From assembly GCA_020633495.1 (NCBI GenBank), contig JACKDR010000001.1, forward strand, positions 374,105-438,104: a stretch of 64,000 nt of DNA, read 5' to 3'. Under the pieces are notes generated by a model. It saw only the letters and a program-made list of their open reading frames with translations. It had not been told where the DNA came from and searched no databases. This DNA comes from Kofleriaceae bacterium. GTDB taxonomy: Bacteria; Myxococcota_A; Polyangia; Haliangiales; Haliangiaceae. Shown here one piece after another: positions 2,725-41,200 of the stretch (its first letter is position 1; every line of letters begins with the position of its first letter). The position numbers and the translations under genes are program-made.

Positions 2725-2728
<4 letters not shown>
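1544..2728 (-). CDS. HD-Pnk-type end-healing enzyme: N-terminal HD phosphohydrolase plus C-terminal P-loop polynucleotide kinase.
   Basis: HD motif (AALLHDVGKP) and Walker A (GLPASGKDTW) lie in the C-terminal ~395 aa of ORF 1544-3970. The GTG start overlaps the stop of the upstream RNA ligase in a GTGA arrangement. The R-rich N-terminal part of the long ORF was judged spurious. Confidence 0.72.
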
Positions 2729-3531
<803 letters not shown>

Positions 3532-3538
3532 GGGGCGA

Positions 3539-3556
3539 GGCGCGCGCGCGCGCGGG
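3539..3556. repeat. (CG)7-8 alternating dinucleotide tract in the methyltransferase-Rnl intergenic spacer.
   Basis: The sequence reads ggcgcgcgcgcgcgcggg. Confidence 0.8.
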
Positions 3557-3567
3557 CGGCGCGGCGC

Positions 3568-4221
3568 CTAGCGTAGCGCGACCGCGACCAGGTGGCCGTG
3601 GACGCCGTCGATGGTGACGCGGCGAGCGCCGGCGGCGCGGAGCCCGGCCTCCAGGGTCGCCGCGGTGAACAGGTGCAGATGCTCGGGGTTGTCGTCGGCG
3701 TGCGACGGCACGGTCACGACCACCGCGCGGCGCGCCACCCGCACCGCCTCGGCCATCGCCGGCGCCGGATCGACCAGGTGCTCGAGGACCTCGAGCAGCG
3801 TGACGGCGTCGGCGGCGCCGTCGGCCAGGCCCAGCGCGGTGGCGTCCATGCGCGCGGCGGCGAGCCGCGCCACGCCGCCGCGCCGGACCGCCGCCAGGCC
3901 CTCGACCCGGTGGGGCAGGACGTCGAGCGCGAGGACGTCGAGCGCGACGAGCTCGTCGAGCAGCGGCCACAGGAAGGCGCCCCGGCCGGTGCCGACGTCG
4001 ACCAGCGCGGCGACGCCGAGGCCGCGCAGGATGCCGAGGACGCGGCGGACCCGCGGCAGCCCGGCGGTGCGCTTGAAGCGGTGCAGGCGTAGGCCGGCGG
4101 CGACGCCGGCGGCGAGCGCGGCGTCGTCGTCACCGAGGCCGTCGTCGCGCAGCGCGCCGCGGCAGTACGCGGCGGCGAGCCAGCGGTAGTGCGACGCGTC
4201 GTCGATCGAGGCCGCGGTCAC
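3568..4221 (-). CDS. Class I SAM-dependent methyltransferase.
   Basis: 217-aa ORF with SAM-binding motif I (VDVGTGRGAF) and motif post-I (LDVLALD). Confidence 0.72.
   Translation of the reverse strand: MTAASIDDASHYRWLAAAYCRGALRDDGLGDDDAALAAGVAAGLRLHRFKRTAGLPRVRRVLGILRGLGVAALVDVGTGRGAFLWPLLDELVALDVLALDVLPHRVEGLAAVRRGGVARLAAARMDATALGLADGAADAVTLLEVLEHLVDPAPAMAEAVRVARRAVVVTVPSHADDNPEHLHLFTAATLEAGLRAAGARRVTIDGVHGHLVAVALR

Positions 4222-5150: not shown

Positions 5151-5154
<4 letters not shown>
4240..5154 (-). CDS. Secreted/membrane-anchored TPR-like protein with a (DTTGGGG)x7 low-complexity linker and C-terminal TM helices.
   Basis: Signal peptide (VTSLKHSLVAAAVAAAALALAPSSARAQ) after a GTG start with a GGAG RBS. 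GTGA overlap with the kinase stop. TPR-like segment (YNLAEYAAAIDAYKEAYKL...). Confidence 0.62.
4615..4765. repeat. Perfect 21-bp tandem repeat (about 7 copies of gccgccgccgccggtggtgtc), coding for (DTTGGGG)n on the minus strand.
   Basis: Seen directly in the sequence. The plus-strand ORF 4577-4870 (PPPPVVS repeats) is its antisense. Confidence 0.85.
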
Positions 5155-6893
<1,739 letters not shown>

Positions 6894-7073
6894 GGTCCCG
6901 GATCCCTCGGGTCGGCCCGGCGGCGTCGACATCGTGCCGCATTGTGACACCCCGGAGCGCCCCGCGGCCAGCGCTCTGACCTGGCAGGGTGTGATCGGCC
7001 GTACCGTCCTTGACGCGGCCGCCCGATCTGGGGCCTGCTACTGCGACATCTGTTCGAGGGGGAATCCAGCTAC

Positions 7074-7505
7074 ATGTCGATCGACCGCAAGAAGTTCCTG
7101 ATGCTGGCCATGTCGATGGGGGTCAGCACGGGTGCCTGTGTAGTCCCGGCGCCTACCAGCACCAGCACCGGCCCGAGCAACACCACCGATCCCAGCGCGA
7201 CGCCGCCCGGCCCGACCGACGAGGCGATGGTCGCCCCGGCCGACGAGTGCACCGACTGGGACGCCACCGGCGAGTGCGTCGGCTGGGCCAGCCAGGGCAT
7301 GTACCCGCAGGACGAGTGCGTCAACTGGGACGCCACCGGCGAGTGCGTCGGCTGGGCCTCCGACGGCATGTACCCGCCCGACGAGTGCGTCAACTGGGAC
7401 GCCACCGGCGAGTGCGTCGGCTGGGCCTCCGACGGCATGTACGGCCCGTCCGAGTGCGTCGGCTGGGACGCCACAGGCGAGTGCATCGACTGGGCCGGGG
7501 ACTGA
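7074..7505 (+). CDS. Small Cys-rich repeat lipoprotein (four ~23-aa repeats of ECVxWDATGECVGWASxGMYPxD).
   Basis: GAGGGGG RBS lies 10 nt upstream of the ATG. Signal peptide with a lipobox-like STGAC. Four near-identical repeats with 2 Cys each. Confidence 0.6.
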   Translation: MSIDRKKFLMLAMSMGVSTGACVVPAPTSTSTGPSNTTDPSATPPGPTDEAMVAPADECTDWDATGECVGWASQGMYPQDECVNWDATGECVGWASDGMYPPDECVNWDATGECVGWASDGMYGPSECVGWDATGECIDWAGD

Positions 7506-7527
7506 GGCACCACGGGGCCCGGGCCCG

Positions 7528-8748
7528 GTGACCGACGGCAAGGAGATGATGGCCCGGTTCGGGCGCGCCCACGGCGCGCTGCGGACCGCCGCGGTCACCG
7601 GGACCAACGGCAAGACCACGACGACCACGATGATCCAGGCGATCGTCGCGGCCGCCGGCGAGCCGTCGGCGCGAGTCACGACCCTGGGCGCGTGGGTCGC
7701 CGGCGAGACGGTCGAGGCCGCGACCCCCAACGAGACCTTCCTGGCCGCGGTCGAGCGCGCGGTCGAGCGCGGGGTCAAGACCCTCGCGCTCGAGGTCACG
7801 TCGAAGGCGCTGGCCGGCGGCCTGGCCCGCCGCTGGCGCCCGCACGTCGCGGTCTTCACCAACCTCACCCGCGACCACCTCGATCTGCACGGCACCGTCG
7901 AGCACTACCTCGCGGCCAAGGCACAGCTGTTCCTCAACCTGCCCCGCGGCGGCGTCGCCGTGCTCAACGCCGACGACCCGGCGTCGACGCTGGTGCGCGA
8001 GGTCGTGCCGCCGGGCGCGACGGTGCGGACGTTCTCGCGCCGCGGCGCCGACGCCACGCTGTCGGCGATCGCGGTGACGACGTCGCCGCGCGGCACCGAG
8101 CTCACGCTGGCGCCGTCGCGCCTCGGCGACGCGCTGGGCGGACGCCTCAGCCTGGCGGTCACCGGCGGCGTCCACGCCGCCAACGCGCTCGGCGCGGCGC
8201 TCGCCGCCGACGCCCTGGGCTACGGCGCCGACGCCATCCGCGACGGCCTGCGCGGCTTCACCGGCACCGCCGGGCGCTTCCAGATCATCGCCACCGCGCC
8301 CCTGGTGGTCGTCGACTACGCCCACACCCCCGACGGCCTCGACGGCACGCTGACCACCGCGCGCGAGCTGATCGCCGCCGCCGGGCGAGGCCGCGTCATC
8401 TGCGTCTTCGGCTGCGGCGGCGGTCGCGACCGCGGCAAGCGCCCCGAGATGGGCGCGATCGCCGACCGCCTCGCCGACGTCGTCGTCCTGACCAACGACA
8501 ACCCGCGCCACGAGGACCCCGCCGCGATCGCGGCCGAGATCCGCGCCGGGGTCCCGGCGCCCGCGGCGACCTGGCACCAGGAGCTCGACCGCGCCGCCGC
8601 GATCGAGCTCGCGCTGGCCGCCGCCGGCGCGGACGATCTGGTCGTCATCGCCGGCAAGGGCCACGAGGAGGACCAGGAGATCCGCGGCGTCAAGGTGCCG
8701 TTCAGCGACGTCGCGGTGGCGCGGGCGGTGCTGGCGCGGCGCGGCTGA
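7528..8748 (+). CDS. Mur ligase family protein (MurE-like central and C-terminal domains, no N-terminal domain).
   Basis: P-loop (GTNGKTTTT) near the N-terminus. Motifs DYAHTPDGL and VIAGKGHEE. Confidence 0.72.
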   Translation: MTDGKEMMARFGRAHGALRTAAVTGTNGKTTTTTMIQAIVAAAGEPSARVTTLGAWVAGETVEAATPNETFLAAVERAVERGVKTLALEVTSKALAGGLARRWRPHVAVFTNLTRDHLDLHGTVEHYLAAKAQLFLNLPRGGVAVLNADDPASTLVREVVPPGATVRTFSRRGADATLSAIAVTTSPRGTELTLAPSRLGDALGGRLSLAVTGGVHAANALGAALAADALGYGADAIRDGLRGFTGTAGRFQIIATAPLVVVDYAHTPDGLDGTLTTARELIAAAGRGRVICVFGCGGGRDRGKRPEMGAIADRLADVVVLTNDNPRHEDPAAIAAEIRAGVPAPAATWHQELDRAAAIELALAAAGADDLVVIAGKGHEEDQEIRGVKVPFSDVAVARAVLARRG

Positions 8749-28594: not shown

Positions 28595-31500
28595 CTACGC
28601 CCGCGCCCCGCGGCGACGCCGCGCGACCATCAGGCCGAGGCCGACCAGGACCAGGCCAGCCGCACCGCCCTCGCCGCCACCGGTCGAGCAGCCGCCGCCG
28701 TTGACCACGACCTCCGGGTTGTCGATGGGCGCCGCGACGACGAACGAGTTGGGCTCGGAGAACTCGCTCTCGGCCCCCTCGGCATCGACCGCCTTGGCGT
28801 GCCAGGTGTACGTCGCGCCGTTGTCGAGCTGGCCGGCCATCGAGGTGACGGTGCCGCTGACGCCGGTGACGGACGCCACCACGGTATCGGAGGAGTCCAT
28901 GACCTCGACCACGTAGGTGATGTTCTCACCCTCGGGGTCGGTGGCCGGGGCCCACGAGAACACCGGCGCGGTGGTCACGACGCTGCTGCCGTCCGACGGG
29001 TTGTTGAGCGTCGGCACGGTCGGCGGATCGTTCACCGTCGACACCAGGAAGCAGGCGGCGTTGTACGCGCTGGTGGCCTGGCCGTCATCCGACCGGGCGC
29101 GCCAGCAGTACCGGGTGTCCTCGTCGAGATCCGCGGCCAGGTTGAACGCGGTGTTCTGGACGCCCTGCGCGTTCACGTTGGTGCCGCTGTCGATGATGGT
29201 CCCGAAGGTGTCATCGGTGGCGAGATCCCAGTCGTAGACCACGACGTCGAGGTCGGAGTCGTCGGCGTTGAGGATGATCAGCTCGGGGCGAACCGTCGCG
29301 ACGATCGTCCCGTTCTGCGGCGACACCAGCACCGGCGCCTCGGGGGCGGCGTTGACGGTGGTCACGAAGAACTTGCCGTTCTGGCTCCAGTCGCCGTCCA
29401 GGCCCTCGTCGTCGGTGGCCCGCGCGCGCCAGTAGTACGTGGTGTCCTCGACCAGGGTCGCCGTGGTCACCCAGCTGGTGGTGCCGGTGCCCGAGGCGAC
29501 GCCGTTCTCCGACGCCACCAGGTTCGACAGCGCCGGGTCGGAGTAGACCTCGAAGGTATAGGTCAGCGGATCCATGTCGACGTCGGTCGCGTTGTCGACG
29601 GTCAGGGTCGGGGTCAACGAGTTGACCTGACCACCGAACGCCGGCGTGTTGATGCGCGGCGCGCCCGGGGCCTCGTTCACGGTGTTGACGAAGAAGCTGC
29701 AGGTCGCGCTGAACTGGCCGAAGGTGAACTGATCCTCGGCCCGGACGCGCCAGTAGTAGGTCTGGTTCTCGAGCAGGTTGACCGGGACCGACCACTGGGT
29801 CTGGCCACCGACGCCCTCCGGGATGCCCGCCTGCGACGCCACCAGGATGGTCAAGCCGACATCGCTGTAGAGCTCGAACTCGTAGTCGAGCGCGGTGCCC
29901 TGCGGATCGACCGCGTTGTCCGCGACCAGGATGGTCTGCAGGCTGTTGATCTCGCCACCGCAGGTCGGCGAGGCCGCGACCGGCGCCGACGGGCCGTCGT
30001 AGGTCAGCGGGTCGGTGACATTGTTGAACTCCTGGAGGTTGTTCATGCCGTCGCCGTCGGGGTCACCGAACTGATCCTGCGACGTGATGTCGCCGAAGTT
30101 GGCGTTCTCCCACGAGTCGGGCAGGCCATCACCGTCGGTGTCGACGAAGGTCACGTCGATGTCGAAGCTCTGGCAGGTCTGGCCGTTGTCGTCGTCGGTG
30201 ACACAGACGGTGACCGGCGCGCTGGCGCCGAGGGCCTGGGTGAAGTTCGGGGTCCAGTCGACGGTGCAGCCGGTCAAGGTCATCCCGGCCGGCACCACCG
30301 GCGCCGAGCAGGTGTGCGTGTCCGCGACGCCCGGGTCGGTGAACGTCACGGTGTAGGTGTACGCCGTGCCCTCGACTGCGGAGGTGCCCGGCGTCGAGGT
30401 GATCGTGGGCGCGACGTTGTTGACGGTGACGGTGAGCCCCGAGTTGCCGACGCCGCCGTCGTCGTCGGTCACGGCGACGGTGACCGCGTACGTGCCGTTG
30501 TCGGCGTAGGCGTGGTTCGGGTTCTGGGCGGTGTCGCCGGTGGTGTCGCCGAAGGTCCAGGCGAACGTGTGGGTGTCAGCGGTGCCCGGGTCGGTGAAGG
30601 TGACCGCGAACGGCACGGCGTCACCCTCGTTGGCCACCAGGTCGGGCCCGGCGTTGGCGGTGGGCGCGACGTTGGTGATGACCACCGGGATGGTATCGAC
30701 CGAGGTGCCGCCGATGCTGGTCGAGGTCAGGGTCACGTCGAAGGCGCCGTCATCGGGGAACGCGTACGTCACGTTCTGGCCAGGCAGCGTGTCGCCGTTG
30801 GCGAAGTCCCAGGTGTAGACCGGGTTGCCGGTGCCGGGATCGCTCTCCGATCCGTCGAAGCTGATGACCGTGCCCTCGGGCGCGGTGGCGACGCTGGACT
30901 CGCCGATCGCCAGCGGCGGGATGGCGTCCGGCGACAGCACCAGGATCGCCCAGACCGCACGCAGCGTCGGACCGCCGGTGTTGTCGCTGTTGGCGCCGTT
31001 GGCGTAGGACCAGTTCCAGCCGCCGTCCGCGGCCTGGTTGTTGATGAAGTACTGGGAGAACAGCCGGGCCCACTCGTTGCCGCCGAACTGGGTGATCTCG
31101 GGGACGACCGCGCGGGCGGCGTCCTGCCAGTGCAGCATGGCGTAGTGCGTCCCCTGGCCGTCGACCCGGGAGAAGTCACCGCCCGTCACGAATCCGGTGT
31201 TCCACCCGATCGACCCGGAGTAGCCGGTCAGGAACCGGTTGCCGATGAAGTTCAGGATGGCGTCGTGGTGGGTGCGCAGCGCGCCACGGGTGATCGTGCT
31301 GTAGCCGGGGAACGCGATACGGGTGTCGGTGGCGTCGAAGGTGTTGGCCCCGACCCAGCCCATGGCCAGCGTGCTCAGCGCGGTGGTCGTGAAGCCTGGG
31401 GTGGTGTAGCCGGTGCTATAGGCGTTGCCGCGCTCGCCGGCCGCCGGGCTCTGGTAGTTGGTCGCGACGAACACCGCCAGGCGCGCCTTGGCCAGGTTGG

Positions 31501-32644
31501 GGACGATGACGCCCCAGCCGCCGGCGAACTCGTCGGCGTGCCAGAGCCCGGTGACTCCCCACAGCGACGTCGACGTGTCGGTTCCGCCAGCGTTCGCGGT
31601 GTAGTACCAGGTGCCGGTGCCGGTGCCGGTGTCGTTCTGGGCGTAGACCATGCCGTCGACCATCTGCTGGACGATGTACTCGAAGCGGCGGCCGAGGACG
31701 TAGGTCGGGTCACCGACCTGGGCGACGAAGCCCTTGAGGTTCGAGACCGCGAACGACGCCAGCATGTGGCCGAAGACGTAGGAGTCTTCGCCGCTGGTGT
31801 GCCAGAAGGCGACGCCGTCGTCGGTGCCGTTGATCGGGGTCTTCTGGACCTCGGGGTAGAAGCCGCTGAGGTTGGACTCGTCCGCGGCCGGGATGCCGGT
31901 GAGGATCACGAAGCGGGGCAGCATGTAGTTGACCGCGCGCATCGCGTCCTCGGCGTACGGATCGTTGTCCCAGCGGGCGCTGTTGTCGGCGGCGTCGGGG
32001 AGCGCGCCGATGTAGGCCGGCGGGAACGCCGCGAAGTGGCCGTTGAGCGACAGCGACCACAGGAAGCCCGCGGTCGCCGCCTCGGGGTAGCCGGCGGGGA
32101 TGTTGCCGCTTGCCTGGGCACCGTAGAGGGCATCACCCTCGTTGCCGGTGCGAGTCATCTGGTTGTGCAGGTACCAGAGCGCGTCGTCGACCGCGACGCC
32201 GCGCATGACCTGGAGCTGGCGGTCGGTCGCCGTCCCCGGGTCGGCGGGAACGTCGGCGAAGACGCGCACCGGGTAGGTCCCGGTGACGGTCTCACCGTTC
32301 GAGGTCACCCGGACCACCGCGTTGAAGCCGGTGGTGGTGACCTGGTCGGGGTACGTGAAGGTGGCCGCCAAGTTGTAGCGGTTGGTCGTGGGGAAGGTGG
32401 TGTCGAAGGTACCGTCACCGTCGAAGTCCCACTCGACGGTGTAGTTGCCGTCGCCGCCGCGCGCGATCGCCTTGAAGGTGGTCGCGTGCCCGTTGTAGGC
32501 CTGGTGCGGCACCGTGGGGTCCGTCGCCACCCAGGGCACGGGTATCACCTTGAGGTTCTGGGCCGAGGCGGTTCGACCGACGGCGAGCGCCACCAACGAG
32601 ACGATGGCAGCAAGCAAGTAGCGCTGGACGCGAGCAGGCATCAC
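28595..32644 (-). CDS. Large secreted multi-domain protein with PKD-like repeats, a possible alpha/alpha-toroid domain, FN3-like repeats and a MYXO-CTERM sorting signal.
   Basis: Signal peptide. Repeated PKD motifs (WDFGDGT / FAWTFGD / NHAYADNGTY). C-terminal GGGCSTGGGEGGAAGLVLVGLGLMVARRRRG. Confidence 0.82.
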   Translation of the reverse strand: MMPARVQRYLLAAIVSLVALAVGRTASAQNLKVIPVPWVATDPTVPHQAYNGHATTFKAIARGGDGNYTVEWDFDGDGTFDTTFPTTNRYNLAATFTYPDQVTTTGFNAVVRVTSNGETVTGTYPVRVFADVPADPGTATDRQLQVMRGVAVDDALWYLHNQMTRTGNEGDALYGAQASGNIPAGYPEAATAGFLWSLSLNGHFAAFPPAYIGALPDAADNSARWDNDPYAEDAMRAVNYMLPRFVILTGIPAADESNLSGFYPEVQKTPINGTDDGVAFWHTSGEDSYVFGHMLASFAVSNLKGFVAQVGDPTYVLGRRFEYIVQQMVDGMVYAQNDTGTGTGTWYYTANAGGTDTSTSLWGVTGLWHADEFAGGWGVIVPNLAKARLAVFVATNYQSPAAGERGNAYSTGYTTPGFTTTALSTLAMGWVGANTFDATDTRIAFPGYSTITRGALRTHHDAILNFIGNRFLTGYSGSIGWNTGFVTGGDFSRVDGQGTHYAMLHWQDAARAVVPEITQFGGNEWARLFSQYFINNQAADGGWNWSYANGANSDNTGGPTLRAVWAILVLSPDAIPPLAIGESSVATAPEGTVISFDGSESDPGTGNPVYTWDFANGDTLPGQNVTYAFPDDGAFDVTLTSTSIGGTSVDTIPVVITNVAPTANAGPDLVANEGDAVPFAVTFTDPGTADTHTFAWTFGDTTGDTAQNPNHAYADNGTYAVTVAVTDDDGGVGNSGLTVTVNNVAPTITSTPGTSAVEGTAYTYTVTFTDPGVADTHTCSAPVVPAGMTLTGCTVDWTPNFTQALGASAPVTVCVTDDDNGQTCQSFDIDVTFVDTDGDGLPDSWENANFGDITSQDQFGDPDGDGMNNLQEFNNVTDPLTYDGPSAPVAASPTCGGEINSLQTILVADNAVDPQGTALDYEFELYSDVGLTILVASQAGIPEGVGGQTQWSVPVNLLENQTYYWRVRAEDQFTFGQFSATCSFFVNTVNEAPGAPRINTPAFGGQVNSLTPTLTVDNATDVDMDPLTYTFEVYSDPALSNLVASENGVASGTGTTSWVTTATLVEDTTYYWRARATDDEGLDGDWSQNGKFFVTTVNAAPEAPVLVSPQNGTIVATVRPELIILNADDSDLDVVVYDWDLATDDTFGTIIDSGTNVNAQGVQNTAFNLAADLDEDTRYCWRARSDDGQATSAYNAACFLVSTVNDPPTVPTLNNPSDGSSVVTTAPVFSWAPATDPEGENITYVVEVMDSSDTVVASVTGVSGTVTSMAGQLDNGATYTWHAKAVDAEGAESEFSEPNSFVVAAPIDNPEVVVNGGGCSTGGGEGGAAGLVLVGLGLMVARRRRGARA

Positions 32645-32742
32645 GTTCCCCCGTGGAATTAGTCCGGGACGCGGCTACACGTATAGCCGAGACCCCGTGA
32701 CACTGTTACGCAGAACCTGCGCGGAACGCAAGTCCTCCGGGC

Positions 32743-35446
32743 CTACGGGATTCTCCGATTTCCCAGCGTCGGGATCGCGAGGGTGATCAACGCGAGCATC
32801 GCGAGCACGGTCGCGGCGACGGGAAGCGAGTGGATGACTCGCTCGCGGCGGCTCACCGGTGGCGTCGACGGCGTCGACCAGATCGCCGGCCCGAGCGCCG
32901 CATGCTCCGGATCTCCGAGGACGATCGTGGTCCGCGCGCCCGCCGCGACGAGCTCGAGGTCGGTGTCGGACGGCACCACACGCACCACCGCGCCGAGGTG
33001 ATCGAAGCCGCGCGCGATCAGCGCGACGGTCCGACCGGTCTCACCGGGACGGTCCGGCGACCGGACATCGAGCTGCCCCACCGCTACCCCATCCGGTGAC
33101 GCGACGGTGACATCGATCGCGCTGGGCGCGCTGGGCGCGGTGGGCGTGGTCGCCGCGGCGACCTCCAGCTCGACCCCGGCGCGCGGCACCGCGACGTCAC
33201 GGATCAGCGCCGCGCCGAGGTCGGGCGGCACCCACGCGCCGCCGAGATCGGCGGTCCACGCCAGGACCCGTCCGGCGCCGTGAGGGCGCCACGCCAGCAA
33301 CGGCTCGGCGGCGACGTCGGCGAGCACCTCGGCGTCCCCGGTCGGATGCAGACCCACGTGTCCGATGACCGGCGCGTTCTCGAGGCCGGCCGGCGGCGCG
33401 CCGAGCAGCCGCGCCCACGCGGCGCGCACCGCGGCGGTGCCGGCGGTGGTGGCCGGCGCGCCCGCGGTCCGGATGGCGGGCAGCGCCGCCGCGACGCCGC
33501 CGTCGTCCGGATGGACCTCGCCGCCGCCGGCGCGCGCCAGCGCGGCGAGCCGCGCGGCGGCGGCCTCGTCAGGCTCGCCGGTGGCGATCACCTCGAGGCG
33601 GACGCCCGCGCCGGCCAGGGCCCGCGCCGCGTCGAGCGCGGCCGGCGCCGCCGCGGCGAAGCCACCGTCGCTGACCAGGACCGCGACCCGCCGGGTGTCG
33701 GCGGGGGCCGCGGTCAGGCGGCGGGCGGCGAGCCGCAGCGCGGCGGTCGGATCGGTGCCGCCGCGCGCCGGCGGCGGCAGCGTCGGCACCGCGGCGCCGG
33801 TCCCGACCGGCGCCAGCGGCACCCAGTCAGTGGCGTCGACGTCGAACGCGATCGCGCCGAACAGATCGGTGGGCTCCAGCGCGGCGCCGGCGGCGGCGAC
33901 GTCGGCGGCGCCGGGCACCGCGCCGCGGCGCCCAGCGGCGTCGATCGATCCCGAGCGATCGACGACGAGCAGCAGCGCGACGCGCGGGCCGTCGCCGGGG
34001 CGCAGCGGCAGCAGCCAGGCCACCTCCCCACCCCGCCGGCCGCGACCGCCGGGCCGGCGGCCCACAGCAGCGTGCCGCCGCCGGTGACGAAGTCGTCGAC
34101 GGCGGCGACCGCGTCGGGCGACAAGCGCCGCCGCCAGGACGTCGTCGAGCACGGCGACGTCGACGGCGGCCAGCGCCGGCGCCACCAGCGCCGCCGCCGA
34201 GGTGGCGTCGACGCGGAGCAGCCAGGGCGGCCCGGCGACGTCGACGCGGGCGCGCGCGTGATCGGTGGCGGCCACCGGATCGCCGGCCGCGACGATCGTG
34301 ACGTCGAGGTCGGCCGGCCCGGCGGCGTCGTGGGTGACCGGCACGGTGAGCGCGGTGCGGCCGGCGCCGACCTCGACGTCGCGGTGGGCGATGACGGCGC
34401 CGCGGTGCCGGACCTCGACCGCGACGGCGAGCGCGACCAGGCCTCGATCACGACCGGCAGCGCGAACGGGCGGCCAGGCGCGGCGCGGCGCGACGTCGCC
34501 GGGACCTCGACCCGCGCCAGGTCGCCGCTGTCGACGGCGGCGAGCTCGAGCCGGCGGCCGATGCGCGCCAGGGACGTCGCCACCGCGGCGTCGCCGCGGA
34601 CGCTGTCGCGGCCGTCGCCGACCACGACGAGCTCGCCGCCGCCGCCGCCCAGCGCAGCGCCGGCGACCGCCAGCGCGGCGCCCAGATCCGTGCGCGCCGG
34701 ATCGACGCCGAGCGCGACGGCGTCGACCAGGCCGCGCCGCGCCCACCGCGCCACCGCCGCCGGCGGACCGAGCGGAACGACGACGCGGGCGCCGCCGGCG
34801 CGACGATCAGCGCGGCACGATCGTCGGGGCCGAGCGCGTCGGCGCGGCGCGCGACCTCGGCGCGGGCCGCGGCCTCGGCAGGCGCGACGCTCGCCGAGAC
34901 GTCGAGCACGAAGCCGACCCGCCGGCCGTCGCGCGTCACCCCGCCCCAGGCCAGGGCGCCGAGGCCGGCGACCAGCGCGACGCGGGCGGCCAGCGCGCCG
35001 CGGCGGGCCCGGGTCGCCGCGGCCTCGATCGCGATCAGCAGCGCGGCGACGATCAGCAGCGCCCGCACCGGCCAGCCGCGCCGGGGCGCCAGCTCGCCGG
35101 CAGGGACCGCCGGCGCGAGCGCCGGCGCCTCGACCGTCACCACCTCGGCGCGCGCCACCGGCGCCAGCGGCGGCGCCGCCAGCGCGTCGGCCAGCACCAC
35201 CGGCAGGACCGGCCCGTCGAGCCGCGCGGTCAGGCGCAGCGTCGGCGTCGCGGCGACGTCGAGCCACAGCGCCAGGTGCGGCCCGGCGCGCAGCCACACC
35301 GCGCCGGGTCGATCGCGTGATCCGCGGGCGTGACGTCGACCGGCGCCGCGGCGTCGAGCAGCGCCGCGGTCGCGCCCGGGCAGCGGCGCGCCCGGCACCC
35401 GCAGCAGCGGCTCGGTCGCGCCGCCGGCGGCGGCGTCGACGACGAT
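32743..35446 (-). pseudogene. One or two vWA-domain (BatA/BatB-like) genes fragmented by frame changes. Boundaries unresolved.
   Basis: vWA MIDAS-like segments (LLLVVDRSGSI, VGFVLDVSASV, LVVVGDGRD) are spread over three frames (ORFs 32743-34746, 33714-35471, 34448-36370). Confidence 0.35.
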
Positions 35447-36388
35447 CACCGCGCGCGCCAGGCCCCGCCACGACGGCGACGCCACCACCGCGATCGCCCG
35501 GGCGCCAGCGCCGCGACCGCCGTCACCGTCGGCAGCACCGCGAGCGCGCGCGCCACCGGGCCGCCGGCGAGCGCCGGATCGATCCACACCGGCGCGGGCG
35601 CCAGCGGCGGCAGCCACACGGTCGCGCGGTCGTCGGCGGCGATCGGGTCGGCGGCGCCGTCGGCGATCAGCGTCAGCGCCTCGTCGCCGTCGCCGGCGTA
35701 GTCGAGGACCGCGACGGCGCGATCGTCGCCGGCCGCGGTGACCGCGCCGCGGCCGCGGATCGCGCCGTCGGCGGCGCGGGCCTCGACCAGCGCCGGCGCC
35801 GCGACGCCGCCGTGGCGGGCCAGCGTCACGATGATCCGGGCGTGGCGCGGCGCCGCGGCGTCGCGCGCGACCTCGATCGCGGCGATGCCGACGTCGAGCC
35901 ACGGCGGCGGCGCTGGCGCCAGCTCGACCGCGCGGGCGCCGGGCAGCGCGGCCGCGACCGCGTCGGCGAGGCCGGCGGCGTCGACGGTGCCTGGCCCCGG
36001 CACCAGCGCCGCCGCGGCGGCGCGGCGGCGAGCCAGCGCGGCGGCGCGCCTGGGACCGCGAGGACGACCTCGTCGAAGCCGGCGACGCGGCGCGCGCACG
36101 GCGTCGAGATCGAGGGCCCGGGTCGCCGACAGGTCGACGACCAGGACCCAGGCGCCGCCGCGGTCGACCACCATCGGCGCCGCGGCGGCCAGCGCGATCG
36201 CCGCCACCGCGGCGACCCACAGCAGCCGGCTGCGCGCGGCGCGGCCGCCGCGCCGCCGCCCCGACGCGCCGGGCGCGATCAGGAACCACATCAGGTGCGC
36301 CACCGGCGCGCCGCGCGCCCGCCGCGCCAGCCACGCCGCCACCGGCACCAGCGCCAGCAGGCCCAGCCACGCCGGCGCGGTCAGCTCC
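35446..36388 (-). CDS. BatA-like vWA-domain membrane protein.
   Basis: GTG start overlapping the DUF58 stop. N-terminal TM (PAWLGLLALVPVAAWL). Motif VLVVDLSAT. The C-terminal tail may be frameshifted. Confidence 0.45.
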
Positions 36389-37244
36389 ACAGCGCCACCA
36401 GCTCTCCCGCGGCGTCGACCAGCCGCGGCGGCGAAGCCGCGTCGATCACGACCACCGGCACGCCGCGGTGGCGCAGGCCGTCGACGACGCGGCGCCGCCA
36501 GCCCGCGATCGCCGCGGCGAAGCCGGTGGCCGCGGCGTCGTCGAGGCGGCGCCGCGCGCCGGTCTCGGCGCAGCGCAGCTCGTCGACGCCGCCGCCGAGC
36601 TCGGCGTCGCGGCCGTCGACCAGGTGGACGCACGCGATGCGGCGGGCCAGCCGCGCCACCGCCGCCGCCAGCTCGTCGGGCGGCGCCGGATCGGCGAGGT
36701 CCGACAGCAGCACGACCTGCTCGTCGGGACGGACCGCGCGACAGGCCCGCGCCAGCGCGTCCCCGAGGCCGAGCGTGCCGCCGCGGCCGAGCGCGCCGAG
36801 CCGGGCCAGCGCTCGCTGCGCGCCGGCGGCGTCGAGCCGCGCGCGGTCGGCGCCGCCGCGGCGACCGGCGCCGGCGAGGCCGTCGATCGCGACCGGCAGC
36901 GCCGCCGCGCCGGCCACGACGGCGAGCGCCGCGGCCAGGCGCGCGGCCACCGCCCGCCGCGCCTCGGTCATCGACGCCGAGTCGTCGACCATCAGGCGCA
37001 CGCCGCCGTCGCCCTCGGCGCGGTGGCGGCGCACCCACAGCTCGCCGGTGCGCAGCCGGGCCCGCCAGTCGATGGCGCGGGCGTCGTCGCCGGGCCGGTA
37101 CGGATCGTGGCCGTGCAGCTCGTAGCCGCGGCCCAGCCGCGCGGTCGCCGCGGTGCCGGCGGCCTCGCCGGCGCGGCCGCGGACGCGTGCGGCCAGCGCG
37201 GCCAGCTCGCGCAGCTCGTCGCCAGTGAGCAGCGCCGCGGTCAC
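36381..37244 (-). CDS. DUF58-domain protein (MoxR-associated).
   Basis: Signature GYELHGHDPYRPGDDARAIDWRA. Confidence 0.75.
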   Translation of the reverse strand: MTAALLTGDELRELAALAARVRGRAGEAAGTAATARLGRGYELHGHDPYRPGDDARAIDWRARLRTGELWVRRHRAEGDGGVRLMVDDSASMTEARRAVAARLAAALAVVAGAAALPVAIDGLAGAGRRGGADRARLDAAGAQRALARLGALGRGGTLGLGDALARACRAVRPDEQVVLLSDLADPAPPDELAAAVARLARRIACVHLVDGRDAELGGGVDELRCAETGARRRLDDAAATGFAAAIAGWRRRVVDGLRHRGVPVVVIDAASPPRLVDAAGELVALWS

Positions 37245-38235
37245 GACGCGGCGGCGAGGACGTCGTCGACCAGCGCCACCCGCGAGGCGCCCTCGGCCTC
37301 GGCGGCCCAGTCGAGCAGGAGCCGGTGCTCCAGCACCGGGTGCGCGAGCGCCCGGACGTCGTCGCGCGAGACGTGGCCGCGACCGGCGGCGAGCGCGCGG
37401 ACCCGCGCCGCGGCCAGCAGGGCGCGCGCGCGCGCGCCGACACGCCGCCGCGGACCGCGCGCCGCACCGTCGCAGGCGCGACCTCGGCCGCGGGATCGGT
37501 ACAGCGGACCAGCCGCGCGATCAGCGCCGCGACCTCGGGCGCGACGACCGCGCCGGCGGCGGCGCGCCGCAGCTCGAGCAGCGTCGGGCCGTCGACGACG
37601 GCGCGGGTCGCGGCCAGGCTGGCCTGCGGATCCGCGGCGAGGATCCGGATCAGCTCGTCCTCGCTGGGGCCGGTCACGGTCAGCCGCATCAGGAAGCGAT
37701 CGAGCTGCGACTCGGGCAGCGGGTAGGTGCCCTGGTCGAACGGGTTCTGGGTGGCGAGCACGACGAACGGCTCGTCGAGGGTGCGGGTGCCGTCGGGGGT
37801 CGTGACCTGGCGCTCCTCCATGACCTCGAGCAGCGCGGCCTGGGTGCGCGGGCTGGCGCGGTTGAGCTCGTCGGCGAGCACCAGGTTGGCGAACACCGGG
37901 CCGGGCCGGAACTGCAGCTCCTCGACGCCGCCGGGGCCGCGCCGCAGGCTGGGGCCACCGAGGATGTCGGCGGGCAGGAGGTCGGGCGTGAACTGGATGC
38001 GCGCGAACGCCAGGCCCGCGACCTTCGCGATCGTCTTGCACAAGAGCGTCTTGCCGGTGCCGGGCGGGCCCTCGAGCAGGACGTGGCCGCCGGCGATCAA
38101 CGCCGTGAGGACGCCGTCGACGGTGTCGTCGCGGCCGACCACGACCTCGCCGATGGCGTGGCGCAGGGCCAGGAACCGGTCGCGGAACCGGATCACCGGA
38201 TCGTCGTCGTCGACGCGCGAGCTGGCGGCGGTCAC
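37241..38235 (-). pseudogene. MoxR-family AAA+ ATPase with a +2 frameshift inside a (GC)8 tract (about 37462-37477).
   Basis: Walker A (GPPGTGKT) and Walker B (ADELNRA). The C-terminal part (LAAARVRALAAGRGHVSRDDVRALAHPVLEHRLL) is in the other frame (ORF 37241-38041). Confidence 0.7.
37462..37477. repeat. (GC)8 dinucleotide microsatellite inside moxR.
   Basis: The sequence reads ggcgcgcgcgcgcgcgcc. One GC unit more than needed for the intact frame. Confidence 0.8.
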
Positions 38236-41200
38236 GGCGTGGCTCCCGGGGCGGTGGCGAGGTAGGCCGCGACCATCGCGCGGTAGCGATCCGGGACCTC
38301 GGCGACCGCGGCGGCGGCGCCGCCGACCGCGGCCGGGGCGTCGACGGTGCCGGACGGCGCGCTCGCCGCCACCGGCGCGCCAGGGGCGCGCCGCGACGGC
38401 GCCCGGCCCGGTGCCGTCGCCGGGGCCGGTGCCGCCGCCGTCACCACGATCGGCGGCGGCCGCGCGATCCGCCGCGCCGTCGCCGCGCGCGCCGTCGTCG
38501 GCGCCGTCACCACGATCGGCGGCGGCCGCGCCGGCGCGATCCGACGCGTCGCCACGATCGTCGGCGTCGACCGCGGCCAGGACGTCGGCGCCGCGCGCGC
38601 CGCCCGCGACGATCACCGCGCCGCGGGCATCGGCGCCGACCGCAGGGGGCGGCGGCGCCGGTCGCGACCGCCGGCGCCGTGACGTCAGGCGCCGCGGCCG
38701 GCGCCGCGGCGGCGTGCGACCGGGTCAGGTCGCCGGCGCCGCGACCAGCGCGACCGTCGCGACCGCCGCGGCCGCGGCCGGCCACAGCGACGGCGGCCGC
38801 ACCGCCACGGCCCGGCGCGCCGCCGCGACCACCACCGCGGGCGCCAGCCCGTCGTCGGCGATCGCGCCGGTGGCGACCGCGGCGCCGCTGACGATCAGAT
38901 CGTCGCGCTCGGCGTGGCCGTCGAGCCAGCCCGCCGGCGACGCCGGCGCGCGCCCGCGCGACGCGATCCACCGCCGGCCAGCGCGGCCGCGGCCCTGAGC
39001 GCCGCCGCGGCGGCGCCGCCGATCAGCCACGCCGGCGCTGCGACCAGCGCGGCGCCCGCGGCGGCCCCCAGCGCGACACGACGCGCCGCCAGCCGGCGCG
39101 CGACCGAGGTCACCGCACCGGTCAGGATCGCGACCTCATCCCCGGGAGGAGCACGGCGCGACGTTAGCACACCAGCGCGATCGCCGACCCGACCGCGACG
39201 ACGGCACCGACCGCGCGGCGGCGCGCCGCCGCGCAGCCCAGGTCACGCCGGCGGCCACGATCGCCGCGGCCACGACCAGCGCGGGAACGATCGCGACCGC
39301 CGCCGCCAGCGCCGCCGCCAGGCGCCACGCCCACACCGCCGGCACCGACGCCACCGCCGCGGCCAGCGCGACGGCGGCGACGTCGCCGGCGACCAGCGCG
39401 GCGGCGCGCAGCCGCGGCGGCGCGCCGGTCTCGCGCAGCATCGCCGGCCACGCCCGCGCCGCCGCCGCGCGCGTCGCCGACCACGTCGCCGCCGCGGCGA
39501 CCGCGCCATGGCGGCGGCGGCGCACCAGGTCAGCAGACGCAGCGACGCCGCGGCGCCGATCGGATACCAGAAGCCCTCGTGGGCGGCGACCACCACCGCG
39601 GCCAGCGCGGCCCACGCCGCGATCAGCGCGGCCAGCACCAGCGCCGGCGTGGCGCCGACCGACGCCGCCGCGAAGCGCGCGATCGCGCGGGCCGCGACGC
39701 CTGGCGCGGGCGCGCGCCGCGCCGCGTGCGCCACCGGCCGCGCCGACGGCGCGCCGGCGGCGACGGTGACGACGCGGTCGCTGCGGTCGCGGCCGGGCGC
39801 CGCCGTCCACACCAGCGCCCCGGCGCCGCCCCGCACCGCCTCGGCGGCGGCCTGCGACCGCCGCGGCGCCGTCGTCGTCGAGCGCGCCGTCGATCAGCCA
39901 CACCGGCGCCGCGATCGCGCCGCCCCGCGCCGCCGCCGCGCCGTCGCCGCGCGCGCCGTCGCCGTCGCCGACGCCGGCGGCGACCGCGCTGGCGCCACGG
40001 CCGCCCAGCCCGGCGAGCGCGGCCCACAGCGCGACCGCGCTGGCCTCGACGCCGGCGGGCATGCGCTCGCCGGCGCGCACCACCAGCGGCACCGCGTCGC
40101 GGCGCACGACCTCGCCGGCGCGCGGCGCGCGGCGCCCCGCGATCACGTCGAGCACCGCCGACACCACCGGCGCCGGCCCGTCGAGGCGCACGACCTCGCC
40201 GCGCCGCACCGCCAGCGACAGCGGCGCGGCCCCGGCGATCGCGACCACGCCGCGCAGCTCGATCACGGCACCTCCGCGCCGCGCGCGCGGCGCCCGCTCG
40301 AGGCGATCGGCCCAGCCGCCGGCGTCGGCCGGCACGAAGCCGCGGATCCGGAAGCTGCCGGCGCCGGGCAGCCGGCCGGCGAGGCCGACGTCGTCGAGCG
40401 GCCGCAGCGCGGCGTCGCCGGACGGCTCGATCCACAGATCACCGTCGAGCCGGACCGCGCCGCCCAGCGCCGACGCGCCGACCTCGGCGGCGACCCAGTC
40501 CTCGCCGCCGCCGGCCGCGACCCGCGTGCCGCGCACGGCGGGCCCCGGCACCGGCGACCACCACACCGGCGCCACCGCCGCCGCCGCGCACGCGGCGACC
40601 ACGACCGCGGCGCGCCACCGCCGGCGCCGGCCGCGCAGCGCCAGCGTCGCCGCCACCGCCAGCGCCAGCGCCAGCGCGACCCCGCCCAGCGCCCGCGGCA
40701 CCGCCGCCAGCGCCGCCGACGCGCGGGTGCGGGGCACTGGCGCGCCGCCGCGGCGCGCCCGCACGCCGGCGCCGCTCCGTCGACGACGCGGCACACCGTG
40801 GCGCCGGCGCCGAGCGCCCGCGTCACCTGGCGGGCCACCGCCGGCGGCAGCGCCGCGACCGGGCGATCGATCACGACGGCGCCGACGCCGACCAGCGCCT
40901 GCCAGCGCCCGGGCAGCGCCGCCGGCGTCACCGCCACCGGCTCGCCGTAGCCACGGTCGCGGCGCCACGCGTCGATCCCCGGCAGCACCGTCGCGGCGTC
41001 GTCGGTGACGACGACGACCGGGCGGTACACGACGCGCGCCGCGGCCGCCGCGGCGTCGACCGCGTCGCCGTCGCGCGTGGCGACCCGCACCGGCACCGCG
41101 GGCAGCTCGACGATCCCGGGCGGCACCCGCCGCGCCAGCGTCACGCCCTGGCGGCCGCGCGCCGCCAGCTCGACGGCGCGGACGCGACCGTCGACCACCA

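Follow-up and report, generated by a model that had tools for sequence, protein, structure and literature searches.

In graspetides such as the microviridins, and in the action of RimK on ribosomal protein S6, an ATP-dependent enzyme activates the carboxylate of an aspartate or glutamate as an acyl phosphate, and in cyanophycin synthetase a Mur-ligase-like domain, the M domain, attaches arginine to the aspartate side chains of a peptide. Here we describe a locus from a Kofleriaceae bacterium, analysed within a stretch of 64,000 nucleotides (contig JACKDR010000001.1, positions 374,105 to 438,104; hereafter the window), in which a gene for a small cysteine-rich repeat lipoprotein is directly followed by a gene for a MurE-type ligase lacking MurE domain 1 (deltaN-MurE). 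The two genes form a conserved pair, and the lipoprotein shares an N-terminal leader and tandem P-x-x-E motifs with otherwise unrelated repeat proteins encoded beside related ligases, a combination that tentatively suggests a substrate and its modifying enzyme.

Graspetides and RimK are precedents for a leader-and-core logic with ATP-grasp enzymes, and resemble this locus in their conserved leader, in short repeated cores that vary in copy number and in the ATP-dependent enzyme encoded next to them. They differ in that the enzyme is an ATP-grasp rather than a Mur-family protein, that graspetide precursors carry neither a signal peptide nor a lipobox, and that graspetide products are intramolecular esters or amides rather than proteins with an added amino acid. 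Cyanophycin synthetase provides a precedent within the Mur family, as its M domain also lacks the uridine diphosphate (UDP)-binding domain and is among the matches of the window ligase. This match is weaker, however (115 versus 335 bits), and the M domain is fused to an ATP-grasp domain, adds arginine to the aspartates of a polymer made without the ribosome and is not paired with a leader or repeat protein. Bufferin-type precursors of ribosomally synthesized and post-translationally modified peptides (RiPPs) carry a Sec signal peptide and conserved cysteines, and their modification presumably takes place in the cytoplasm, ahead of export. Their modifying enzymes, the multinuclear non-heme iron-dependent oxidative enzymes (MNIO, DUF692), act on cysteine; no such gene lies at the lipoprotein locus, and the lipoprotein has no sequence relation to bufferins (no Pfam or NCBIfam match).

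A leader and tandem P-x-x-E motifs beside a short MurE ligase

On contigs long enough to show a neighbour, the small gene directly adjoins a same-strand gene for a ligase of ~400 aa in 31 of 32 loci; these include 20 of 21 loci from distinct species-representative genomes, and L032 is the sole exception. Their spacing runs from an overlap of 19 nt to a gap of 42 nt, with 22 nt separating the lipoprotein stop codon from the ligase start in the window, and all other neighbours differ. Three loci picked from the ligase side (L033-L035) each contain an upstream family member, of the WTPTGECNKW type, that had been missed earlier. Gene order is inverted in L036, L037 and L039, where the ligase comes first, and the pairing is kept. 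By gene context, the locus thus has the adjacent, co-inherited candidate for a modifying enzyme that characterizes RiPP-like systems. The initial annotation, made from the window alone, had correctly placed the lipoprotein gene between a Ser/Thr kinase gene (5151-6950, minus strand) and a Mur-ligase gene (7528-8748, plus strand), yet treated the latter as a mere landmark, although this gene is the partner that is conserved and on which an understanding of the locus depends.

The leader is the second shared element. In an alignment of 30 diverse members, every sequence has R5 and F8, and at least 90% have D4. Among 1.84 billion representatives, searched exhaustively, the nearest relatives of the ligase include two proteins in which MurF is fused to deltaN-MurE, namely P0234 (909 aa) and P0250 (877 aa). 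P0234 joins a full-length MurF-like ligase to deltaN-MurE, and its gene (L036:10001-13212 and L037:1261-4493; 67% GC, outside any dcw, or division and cell wall, cluster) is followed, with a 4-nt overlap, by the gene of a small lipoprotein that begins MKVNREKFLAAAMVLSAATASTALAGC, follows the pattern MKVNREKFL...LAGC and continues with six to seven copies of NENIAP. At L039:4001-5668, in a Bradymonadia metagenome-assembled genome (MAG; GCA_046290225.1), the gene after deltaN-MurE encodes a secreted protein of 133 aa beginning MKIDREGFLAAAMLMALSHQTSA, in which an MKIDREGFL leader precedes seven copies of RSPAAEAGxRPR and no lipobox cysteine is present; the leader/ligase module therefore extends beyond Polyangia. 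Neither the NENIAP nor the SPAAEAG proteins contain cysteine or tryptophan, and their repeats bear no similarity to those of the window protein. Common to all three repeat types are the leader M-K-[IV]-[DN]-R-x-x-F-L-x-x-A, with R, F, L and A invariant, and tandem P-x-x-E.

Within the Polyangia family, both glutamates of each hairpin unit lie in P-x-x-E-C-x-x-W 9-mers (APADEC..W and DPSGEC..W). The mature parts of 107 proteins contain 684 P-x-x-E motifs, compared with 134 +/- 11 (maximum 168) in composition-preserving shuffles, and 58% of all their glutamates have proline at position -3. Of the 684 motifs, 177 fall in linkers and tails, for example in MAPTGE and WEPRNE. A C-terminal glutamate, with which 34% of members end, was considered as a modification site and rejected, being better read as the P-x-x-E of a truncated linker.

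A pattern combining leader and P-x-x-E picks out exactly one open reading frame (ORF) per listed locus (34 of L001-L039), always beside the ligase, and the leader pattern alone matches only the lipoprotein ORF in all six frames of the window. Even in relaxed form, the combined pattern has no match in 80 control loci that surround other Mur-ligase genes; these loci were taken from a metagenome scan with P0246 and encode mostly canonical Mur ligases of 27-42% identity. One variant, at L030, carries a leader-like AIQRDEFL with no hydrophobic core after it, which hints at a role for the leader motif beyond that of an export signal. A conserved N-terminal leader with a variable core, as in RiPP-like systems, is what the sequence comparison yields.

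Several further deltaN-MurE loci have other neighbours. A more distant form (P0256, L038:875-2661) overlaps a gene for a 2-oxoglutarate (2OG)-Fe(II) oxygenase, and the short-MurE subfamily may, judging from this locus, have other uses. At the P0286 locus, a 207-aa ORF with no Pfam match is followed by deltaN-MurE and then by an overlapping gene with LysM and Peptidase_M15 (VanY-like) domains, an arrangement that may point to peptidoglycan or D-Ala-D-Ala chemistry. At L040:894-3146, the gene before deltaN-MurE encodes a protein of 323 aa with the leader-like sequence LERTAFL and no tandem P-x-x-E repeats; its Cys/Arg-rich C-terminal tail resembles the MYXO-CTERM sorting signal.

The ligase retains ATP and diaminopimelate sites and lacks the UDP-binding domain

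Pfam recognizes only Mur_ligase_M and Mur_ligase_C in the window ligase. The protein scores 335 bits against the murE model TIGR01085 (cut-off 257), with the alignment starting at model position ~76-110, and its ~120 closest homologues measure 369-445 aa. Identity to canonical MurEs is 34-47% among the representatives searched. Domain 1 of MurE holds the uridine-binding site (PMC3829189). The missing domain was sought elsewhere: the ligase frame (7144-8748, plus strand) is open for 128 codons upstream of the start, overlapping the lipoprotein gene, and an N-terminal MurE domain in this overlapping frame was rejected since the frame, although open to 7144, encodes a low-complexity repeat rich in Pro, Ala, Ser and Thr. 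The space upstream of the ligase is too small to hold the domain, and no split Mur N-domain ORF is present among the small upstream ORFs of L001, L002 and L004. In such GC-rich loci, gene callers could produce falsely 5'-extended, seemingly full-length MurE models. The short ligases are automatically annotated as ordinary MurE.

A comparison of 118 short forms with 69 canonical MurEs of 470-535 aa (E. coli numbering) locates what has changed. The ATP/Mg and catalytic residues K119, E182, H210 and K224 are kept at 97-100% in both groups, as is the meso-diaminopimelate (mDAP) site, comprising R389, D413-N414-P415-R416, G464 and E468; the DNPR motif and E468 are the mDAP determinants of MurE (PMC3829189). 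Short and canonical forms have in common the central and C-terminal Mur-ligase domains, the P-loop, the position of the carbamylated lysine and the full mDAP site. A second set of positions, conserved at 84-100% in canonical forms (T157, S184 and R192 at 94-100%), is altered in every short form tested, distant ones included: G141 is replaced by Thr, T157 is deleted (118 of 118), T158 and P159 are variable, S184 is Thr (118 of 118), H186 is Lys, R192 is Leu, Ile, Val or Phe, and N307 is His. In E. coli MurE, T157, T158 and S184 hydrogen-bond UDP-MurNAc-tripeptide (PMC9441312). Because these signature positions are altered while the ATP and mDAP residues stay at 97-100%, the ligase has kept its ATP and mDAP sites and has rebuilt or lost whatever holds the nucleotide-sugar-dipeptide acceptor. 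R192, which we take to lie beside the D-Glu alpha-carboxylate in the E. coli MurE structure 1E8C, belongs to this second set. If so, the loss of domain 1 and the hydrophobic residue at position 192 are both expected where the acceptor glutamate lies within a polypeptide, in contrast to a terminal D-Glu whose alpha-carboxylate is free.

Genomic context also separates the two forms. Canonical MurE is encoded in the dcw cluster next to murF, whereas deltaN-MurE lies beside a secreted protein with the leader and P-x-x-E motifs; no dcw genes adjoin deltaN-MurE in the loci examined, and no other Mur ligase is encoded in the window. Among the Mur proteins encountered, P0233 (979 aa) consists of two tandem full-length MurE modules and is unrelated to the lipoprotein pairing.

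The repeat lipoprotein gene and its family

The lipoprotein gene is well supported as a coding sequence, as the initial annotation had assumed (Table 1): a frame of 143 codons runs from ATG to TGA behind a Shine-Dalgarno-like element, G+C content at third codon positions (GC3) is 0.93 in a window of 69-83% GC, homologues keep Cys, Trp and Glu at invariant positions, and pairwise ratios of nonsynonymous to synonymous substitution rates (dN/dS) are 0.17-0.66 in the sense frame. An antisense gene (ORF 7070-7513, minus strand) was rejected; most homologous loci have this frame open as well, a result of third codon positions shared in DNA of 72-78% GC, but it contains stops in L022 and L026. Tandem Repeats Finder detects a 69-nt unit at 7235-7496 (3.8 copies, 88% matches) together with a 27-nt sub-period, which arises because both hairpin glutamates lie in the 9-mers described above.

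The protein begins with MSIDRKKFLMLAMSMGVSTGAC, continues with a Pro/Thr-rich linker and ends in four E-C-x-x-W-D-A-T-G-E-C-x-x-W units, so that eight Glu-Cys pairs and eight tryptophans fall within 86 residues. The predicted signal peptide of the initial annotation, with its lipobox-like STGAC, holds up: a positively charged n-region precedes an 11-residue hydrophobic core and a Cys22 that is invariant in the 30 diverse members. The residue at -3 of the window lipobox is Thr, which is non-canonical. The protein is probably secreted and lipid-anchored. Export as a substrate of twin-arginine translocation (Tat) was rejected: the window protein has R-K, R-R occurs in only 10 of 107 members, R-E is found in L036 and L039, and the Tat profile PF10518 matches weakly in only 4 of 19 members. 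Four tandem copies, each with WDATGEC, are present as first described; the supposedly invariant GWAS occurs in three of them and is DWAG in the fourth. W85, E90 and C91 of unit 2 are invariant in the first alignment of homologues (A1), and C105, E113 and C114 of unit 3 in the alignment of the 30 diverse members (A2).

Table 1. Features of the lipoprotein gene, its product and the partner ligase gene, in window coordinates.
Feature	Position	Strand	Basis
Shine-Dalgarno-like GAGGGGGA	7056-7063	+	Read in sequence; 11 nt upstream of ATG
Repeat lipoprotein gene, 143 aa	7074-7505	+	ATG 7074 to TGA 7505, GC3, homologues, dN/dS
Putative signal peptide ending in lipobox-like S-T-G-A-C (Cys22)	7074-7139	+	Residue pattern, invariant Cys22
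Leader motif I-D-R-K-K-F-L, residues 3-9	7080-7100	+	Alignment of 30 diverse members
Pro/Thr/Ser-rich linker, residues 23-57, with P-x-x-E motifs PTDE and PADE	7140-7244	+	AlphaFold pLDDT, homologue variability
Hairpin unit 1, ECTDW-DATG-ECVGW, E58-W71	7245-7286	+	AlphaFold strands 59-62, 68-71
Hairpin unit 2, ECVNW-DATG-ECVGW, E81-W94	7314-7355	+	AlphaFold strands 82-85, 91-94
Hairpin unit 3, ECVNW-DATG-ECVGW, E104-W117	7383-7424	+	AlphaFold strands 105-108, 114-117
Hairpin unit 4, ECVGW-DATG-ECIDW, E127-W140	7452-7493	+	AlphaFold strands 128-131, 137-140
Partner 406-aa MurE-type ligase without domain 1 (deltaN-MurE)	7528-8748	+	Pfam, MurE models, synteny

A single-sequence search returned 18 homologues and a profile of the 30 diverse members 111 clusters, all annotated as hypothetical. 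Those with an organism name are all Myxococcota MAGs (Sandaracinus, Kofleriaceae, Polyangiaceae and Polyangiales); one locus, L030, is binned as Vulcanimicrobiota. By these searches the family is undescribed, with no relative in Pfam, NCBIfam or PDB: no family covering the lipoprotein was found in NCBIfam, in PDB by sequence or profile, or in PADLOC, which has no match for the ligase either. The initial annotation had not recognized the repeat as a named domain, and its Pfam match to PF21784 (Bflower) indeed reaches only 16.8 bits against a cut-off of 25. The Myxococcus cysteine-rich repeat and other named Cys-repeat domains give no Pfam or NCBIfam match even at E <= 10, and matches to zf-CCCH, ShK and ComS were rejected as spurious products of the C-x8-C spacing.

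From 347 units, the consensus is A-P-[AT]-[DQN]-E-C-[VTI]-x-W-[DT]-P-[TS]-G-E-C-[IVN]-x-W, with the first Glu present in 92%, the second in 97%, and an aromatic residue (W, Y or F) at each of the two aromatic positions in 97%. Family proteins contain one to six units, and in the sequences inspected the cysteine count equals the lipobox Cys plus two per unit. Since the count follows this rule and single-unit members exist, each unit is self-contained. A conserved core, variable spacers and a copy number of one to six are found together, as in multi-core precursors.

AlphaFold was run twice, once with the complete protein and once with its mature part together with four-repeat homologues. Both runs give four separate beta-hairpins with strands C-x-x-W / C-x-x-W and no globular fold; pLDDT (predicted local distance difference test) is ~75-89 in the hairpins and below 50 in the linkers, and the predicted template modelling scores (pTM) are 0.21 and 0.26. 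Linker residues 23-57, also with pLDDT below 50, differ in sequence among homologues. The hairpin tip is DATG in the window protein and DPSG or TPTG in homologues, which fits [DNEQ]xxG. The modelled fold is beads on a string, neither a knot nor a closed beta-flower barrel. The structure prediction proposed with the initial annotation therefore lends no support to its disulfide-knotted module, given four independent hairpins at such low pTM and one to six repeats per member. An intra-unit C-x8-C disulfide, expected because single-unit members exist, would most simply account for the cysteines outside the cytoplasm; the AlphaFold register neither supports nor excludes it.

Two atypical members were observed. 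At L030:2449-5411, on a contig that may be mis-binned, three ECSQWDATGECTGY units lie inside a protein of ~520 aa with a C-terminal extension of ~300 aa that has no Pfam match, and a short MurE-like ligase 63% identical to that of the window is encoded downstream. At L032:6001-6240, an orphan paralogue of 80-82 aa (P0018/P0227) with one or two units lacks a neighbouring ligase gene; its MAG, ACE_MYX12, also has a paired copy, and the paralogue resembles an extra precursor gene.

A proposed leader-guided modification and its alternatives

Below, we set out the reading that the comparative evidence favours and weigh it against alternatives. The lipoprotein could be a dedicated substrate to whose glutamate side chains the ligase adds mDAP before export, guided by the leader; we hold this as a tentative proposal, short of probable. 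Firstly, the protein would be made with the leader M-x-I-D-R-x-x-F-L, a hydrophobic core and a lipobox Cys, as its sequence indicates. DeltaN-MurE would then recognize the leader in the cytoplasm and, at the expense of ATP, form an acyl phosphate on the gamma-carboxylate of glutamates in the repeated P-x-x-E motifs, which in the window protein are embedded in P-x-x-E-C-x-x-W half-hairpins; each Cys/Trp hairpin would present its two glutamates. mDAP would be joined to the activated carboxylate by the same chemistry as MurE uses on D-Glu in the precursor of peptidoglycan. Finally, the decorated protein would be exported and lipidated. Of the three suggestions in the initial annotation (a disulfide-knotted module, a metal-binding protein and a precursor-like peptide), the last comes nearest to this proposal.

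The purpose of such a modification, and the most speculative step, is plausibly peptidoglycan anchoring. Glu-gamma-mDAP branches would mimic the stem peptides of peptidoglycan, and ordinary transpeptidases could cross-link the lipoprotein into the wall. The MurF fusions and the LysM/Peptidase_M15 neighbour point towards a stem-like Glu-gamma-mDAP product, possibly extended by D-Ala-D-Ala, and hence towards covalent wall anchoring. In its fullest form, the proposal has peptidoglycan-stem-like branches added to ribosomally made envelope proteins in the cytoplasm and then cross-linked into the sacculus: deltaN-MurE would add mDAP at P-x-x-E, the fused MurF of P0234 and P0250 would add D-Ala-D-Ala, and D,D- or L,D-transpeptidases would cross-link the branches after export. 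This extended form we consider unlikely. Braun's lipoprotein Lpp would be the nearest parallel if anchoring is true, being a small outer-membrane lipoprotein tied to peptidoglycan through an amine and mDAP. Lpp differs in using its own C-terminal lysine and a periplasmic L,D-transpeptidase (Ldt), whereas here the diamino acid would be placed on glutamate side chains in the cytoplasm, and it has no sequence similarity to the window lipoprotein.

Several observations weigh against a ligase-substrate relationship. The window protein itself has only four P-x-x-E motifs, its second half-units reading A-T-G-E. The ligase is cytoplasmic and its supposed substrate exported, so modification must precede Sec translocation, and MurE uses a D-Glu with a free alpha-carboxylate where the glutamates here are L and chain-internal. 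The small protein evolves faster than the ligase (35-66% against 52-76% identity), and on the 3-kb contig of L038, which carries a deltaN-MurE gene, no leader protein is encoded. The short form is presumably an accessory paralogue, judging from its altered pocket and non-dcw context. A literature search for a Mur ligase acting on a RiPP, a lipoprotein or a ribosomally made protein found none.

The alternative that survives best, which we regard as possible though rather unlikely, is that the two products are partners and not enzyme and substrate. The lipoprotein would act in the envelope, for example by binding peptidoglycan or muropeptides, while the ligase would take a small substrate other than a nucleotide, for instance L-Ala-D-Glu peptides that are recycled or lipid-linked, or an intermediate of secondary metabolism. 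Strict operon linkage and the complete mDAP site of the ligase agree with such a partnership, as do the other contexts of deltaN-MurE (the 2OG-Fe(II) oxygenase of L038 and the LysM/Peptidase_M15 gene of P0286), and the problem of a cytoplasmic ligase and an exported protein vanishes. A partnership does not account, however, for the leader and P-x-x-E motifs common to three unrelated repeat proteins or for a pairing that outlasts flips in gene order, and a binding protein should keep its binding module, whereas the Cys/Trp hairpins are wholly replaced in other lineages.

It is improbable that the protein is a stand-alone periplasmic lipoprotein, forming disulfides or binding Cu or Zn at Trp-capped C-x8-C sites, whose link to the ligase is mere synteny. 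The density of Glu-Cys pairs and tryptophans, a cysteine count that always equals one plus twice the repeat number, and weak, non-significant matches to C-x8-C zinc-finger profiles and CutA speak for this reading; all the zinc-finger and CutA matches are below threshold, however, and synteny is kept at 35-66% identity amid shuffled neighbourhoods. Relatives with the same leader and ligase have neither Cys nor Trp. For the metal-binding role first suggested for the lipoprotein, nothing beyond the Glu-Cys pairs speaks, and two such relatives lack both residues.

Still less probable is that the short ligase is the housekeeping MurE of this clade, working with a UDP-binding partner such as MurF, with the lipoprotein as an independent neighbour. 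The ligase does score above the TIGR01085 cut-off, its identity to canonical MurEs is a typical cross-phylum value, and the MurF-deltaN-MurE fusions could supply the UDP-binding domain in cis. Against this, deltaN-MurE never lies in a dcw-type cluster in the loci seen, the window encodes no second Mur ligase, and near-invariant precursor-contact residues are lost (the TTP motif and S184, and R192 if its presumed role is correct). The fusion locus, moreover, is itself non-dcw and carries a leader-plus-P-x-x-E lipoprotein, and the leader and P-x-x-E motifs across unrelated repeats would be left unexplained.

In four-fold beta-flowers, beta-hairpins with a [DNEQ]xxG tip follow one another in tandem, and some members are lipoproteins (Durairaj et al. 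2023, PMC10584680). That the window protein is a cysteine-rich flower of this type (PF21784), four hairpin petals closing a shallow 8-stranded barrel on a lipid anchor, is very improbable: it has the listed hairpins, tip and lipoprotein signal and a sub-threshold Pfam match (E = 0.009), but only 2 of 19 members match at E < 1, neither AlphaFold run forms a barrel, and members with one, two, three, five or six units misfit a fixed closed fold.

Other features of the window

Upstream of the Ser/Thr kinase gene that precedes the lipoprotein gene, genes for an RNA ligase (PF09414) and an S-adenosylmethionine (SAM) methyltransferase stand in direct succession, in this order (2725-4221, minus strand). 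Further along, the window encodes an 885-aa protein with a C-terminal OmpL-like beta-barrel porin domain (PF07642; 20522-23176, plus strand) and a 1,359-aa surface protein with PKD/Ig domains (28598-32674, minus strand). The region 33000-41000 has 81-83% GC, a strong positive AT skew of 0.19-0.27 and long open frames on both strands, most with no family match; a MoxR-type AAA ATPase is encoded within it at 35449-38616 (minus strand).

Implications

Two results are independent of mechanism. A family of secreted proteins with the leader and P-x-x-E motifs is now defined, comprising at least 111 clusters and hitherto unannotated, and so is a MurE subfamily without domain 1, clearly marked by its sequence signature and likewise unannotated as such. 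Together they give a rule for finding further candidate substrates, namely M-K-I-D-R-x-x-F-L and tandem P-x-x-E beside a short MurE.

The locus may, as a guarded suggestion, represent leader-guided carboxylate ligation by an enzyme family not known to act in this way. If the proposed mechanism is true, it would be the first protein modification by a Mur-family ligase, with an enzyme of peptidoglycan-precursor synthesis turned to protein modification, and Glu-gamma-diaminopimelate would be a new post-translational modification. Anchoring by this means would add a third, previously unknown covalent route from protein to wall, alongside sortase and Lpp/Ldt. We know of no Lpp homologue in Myxococcota, and the mechanism proposed here might explain how outer-membrane or surface proteins are tethered to the cell wall in this phylum.

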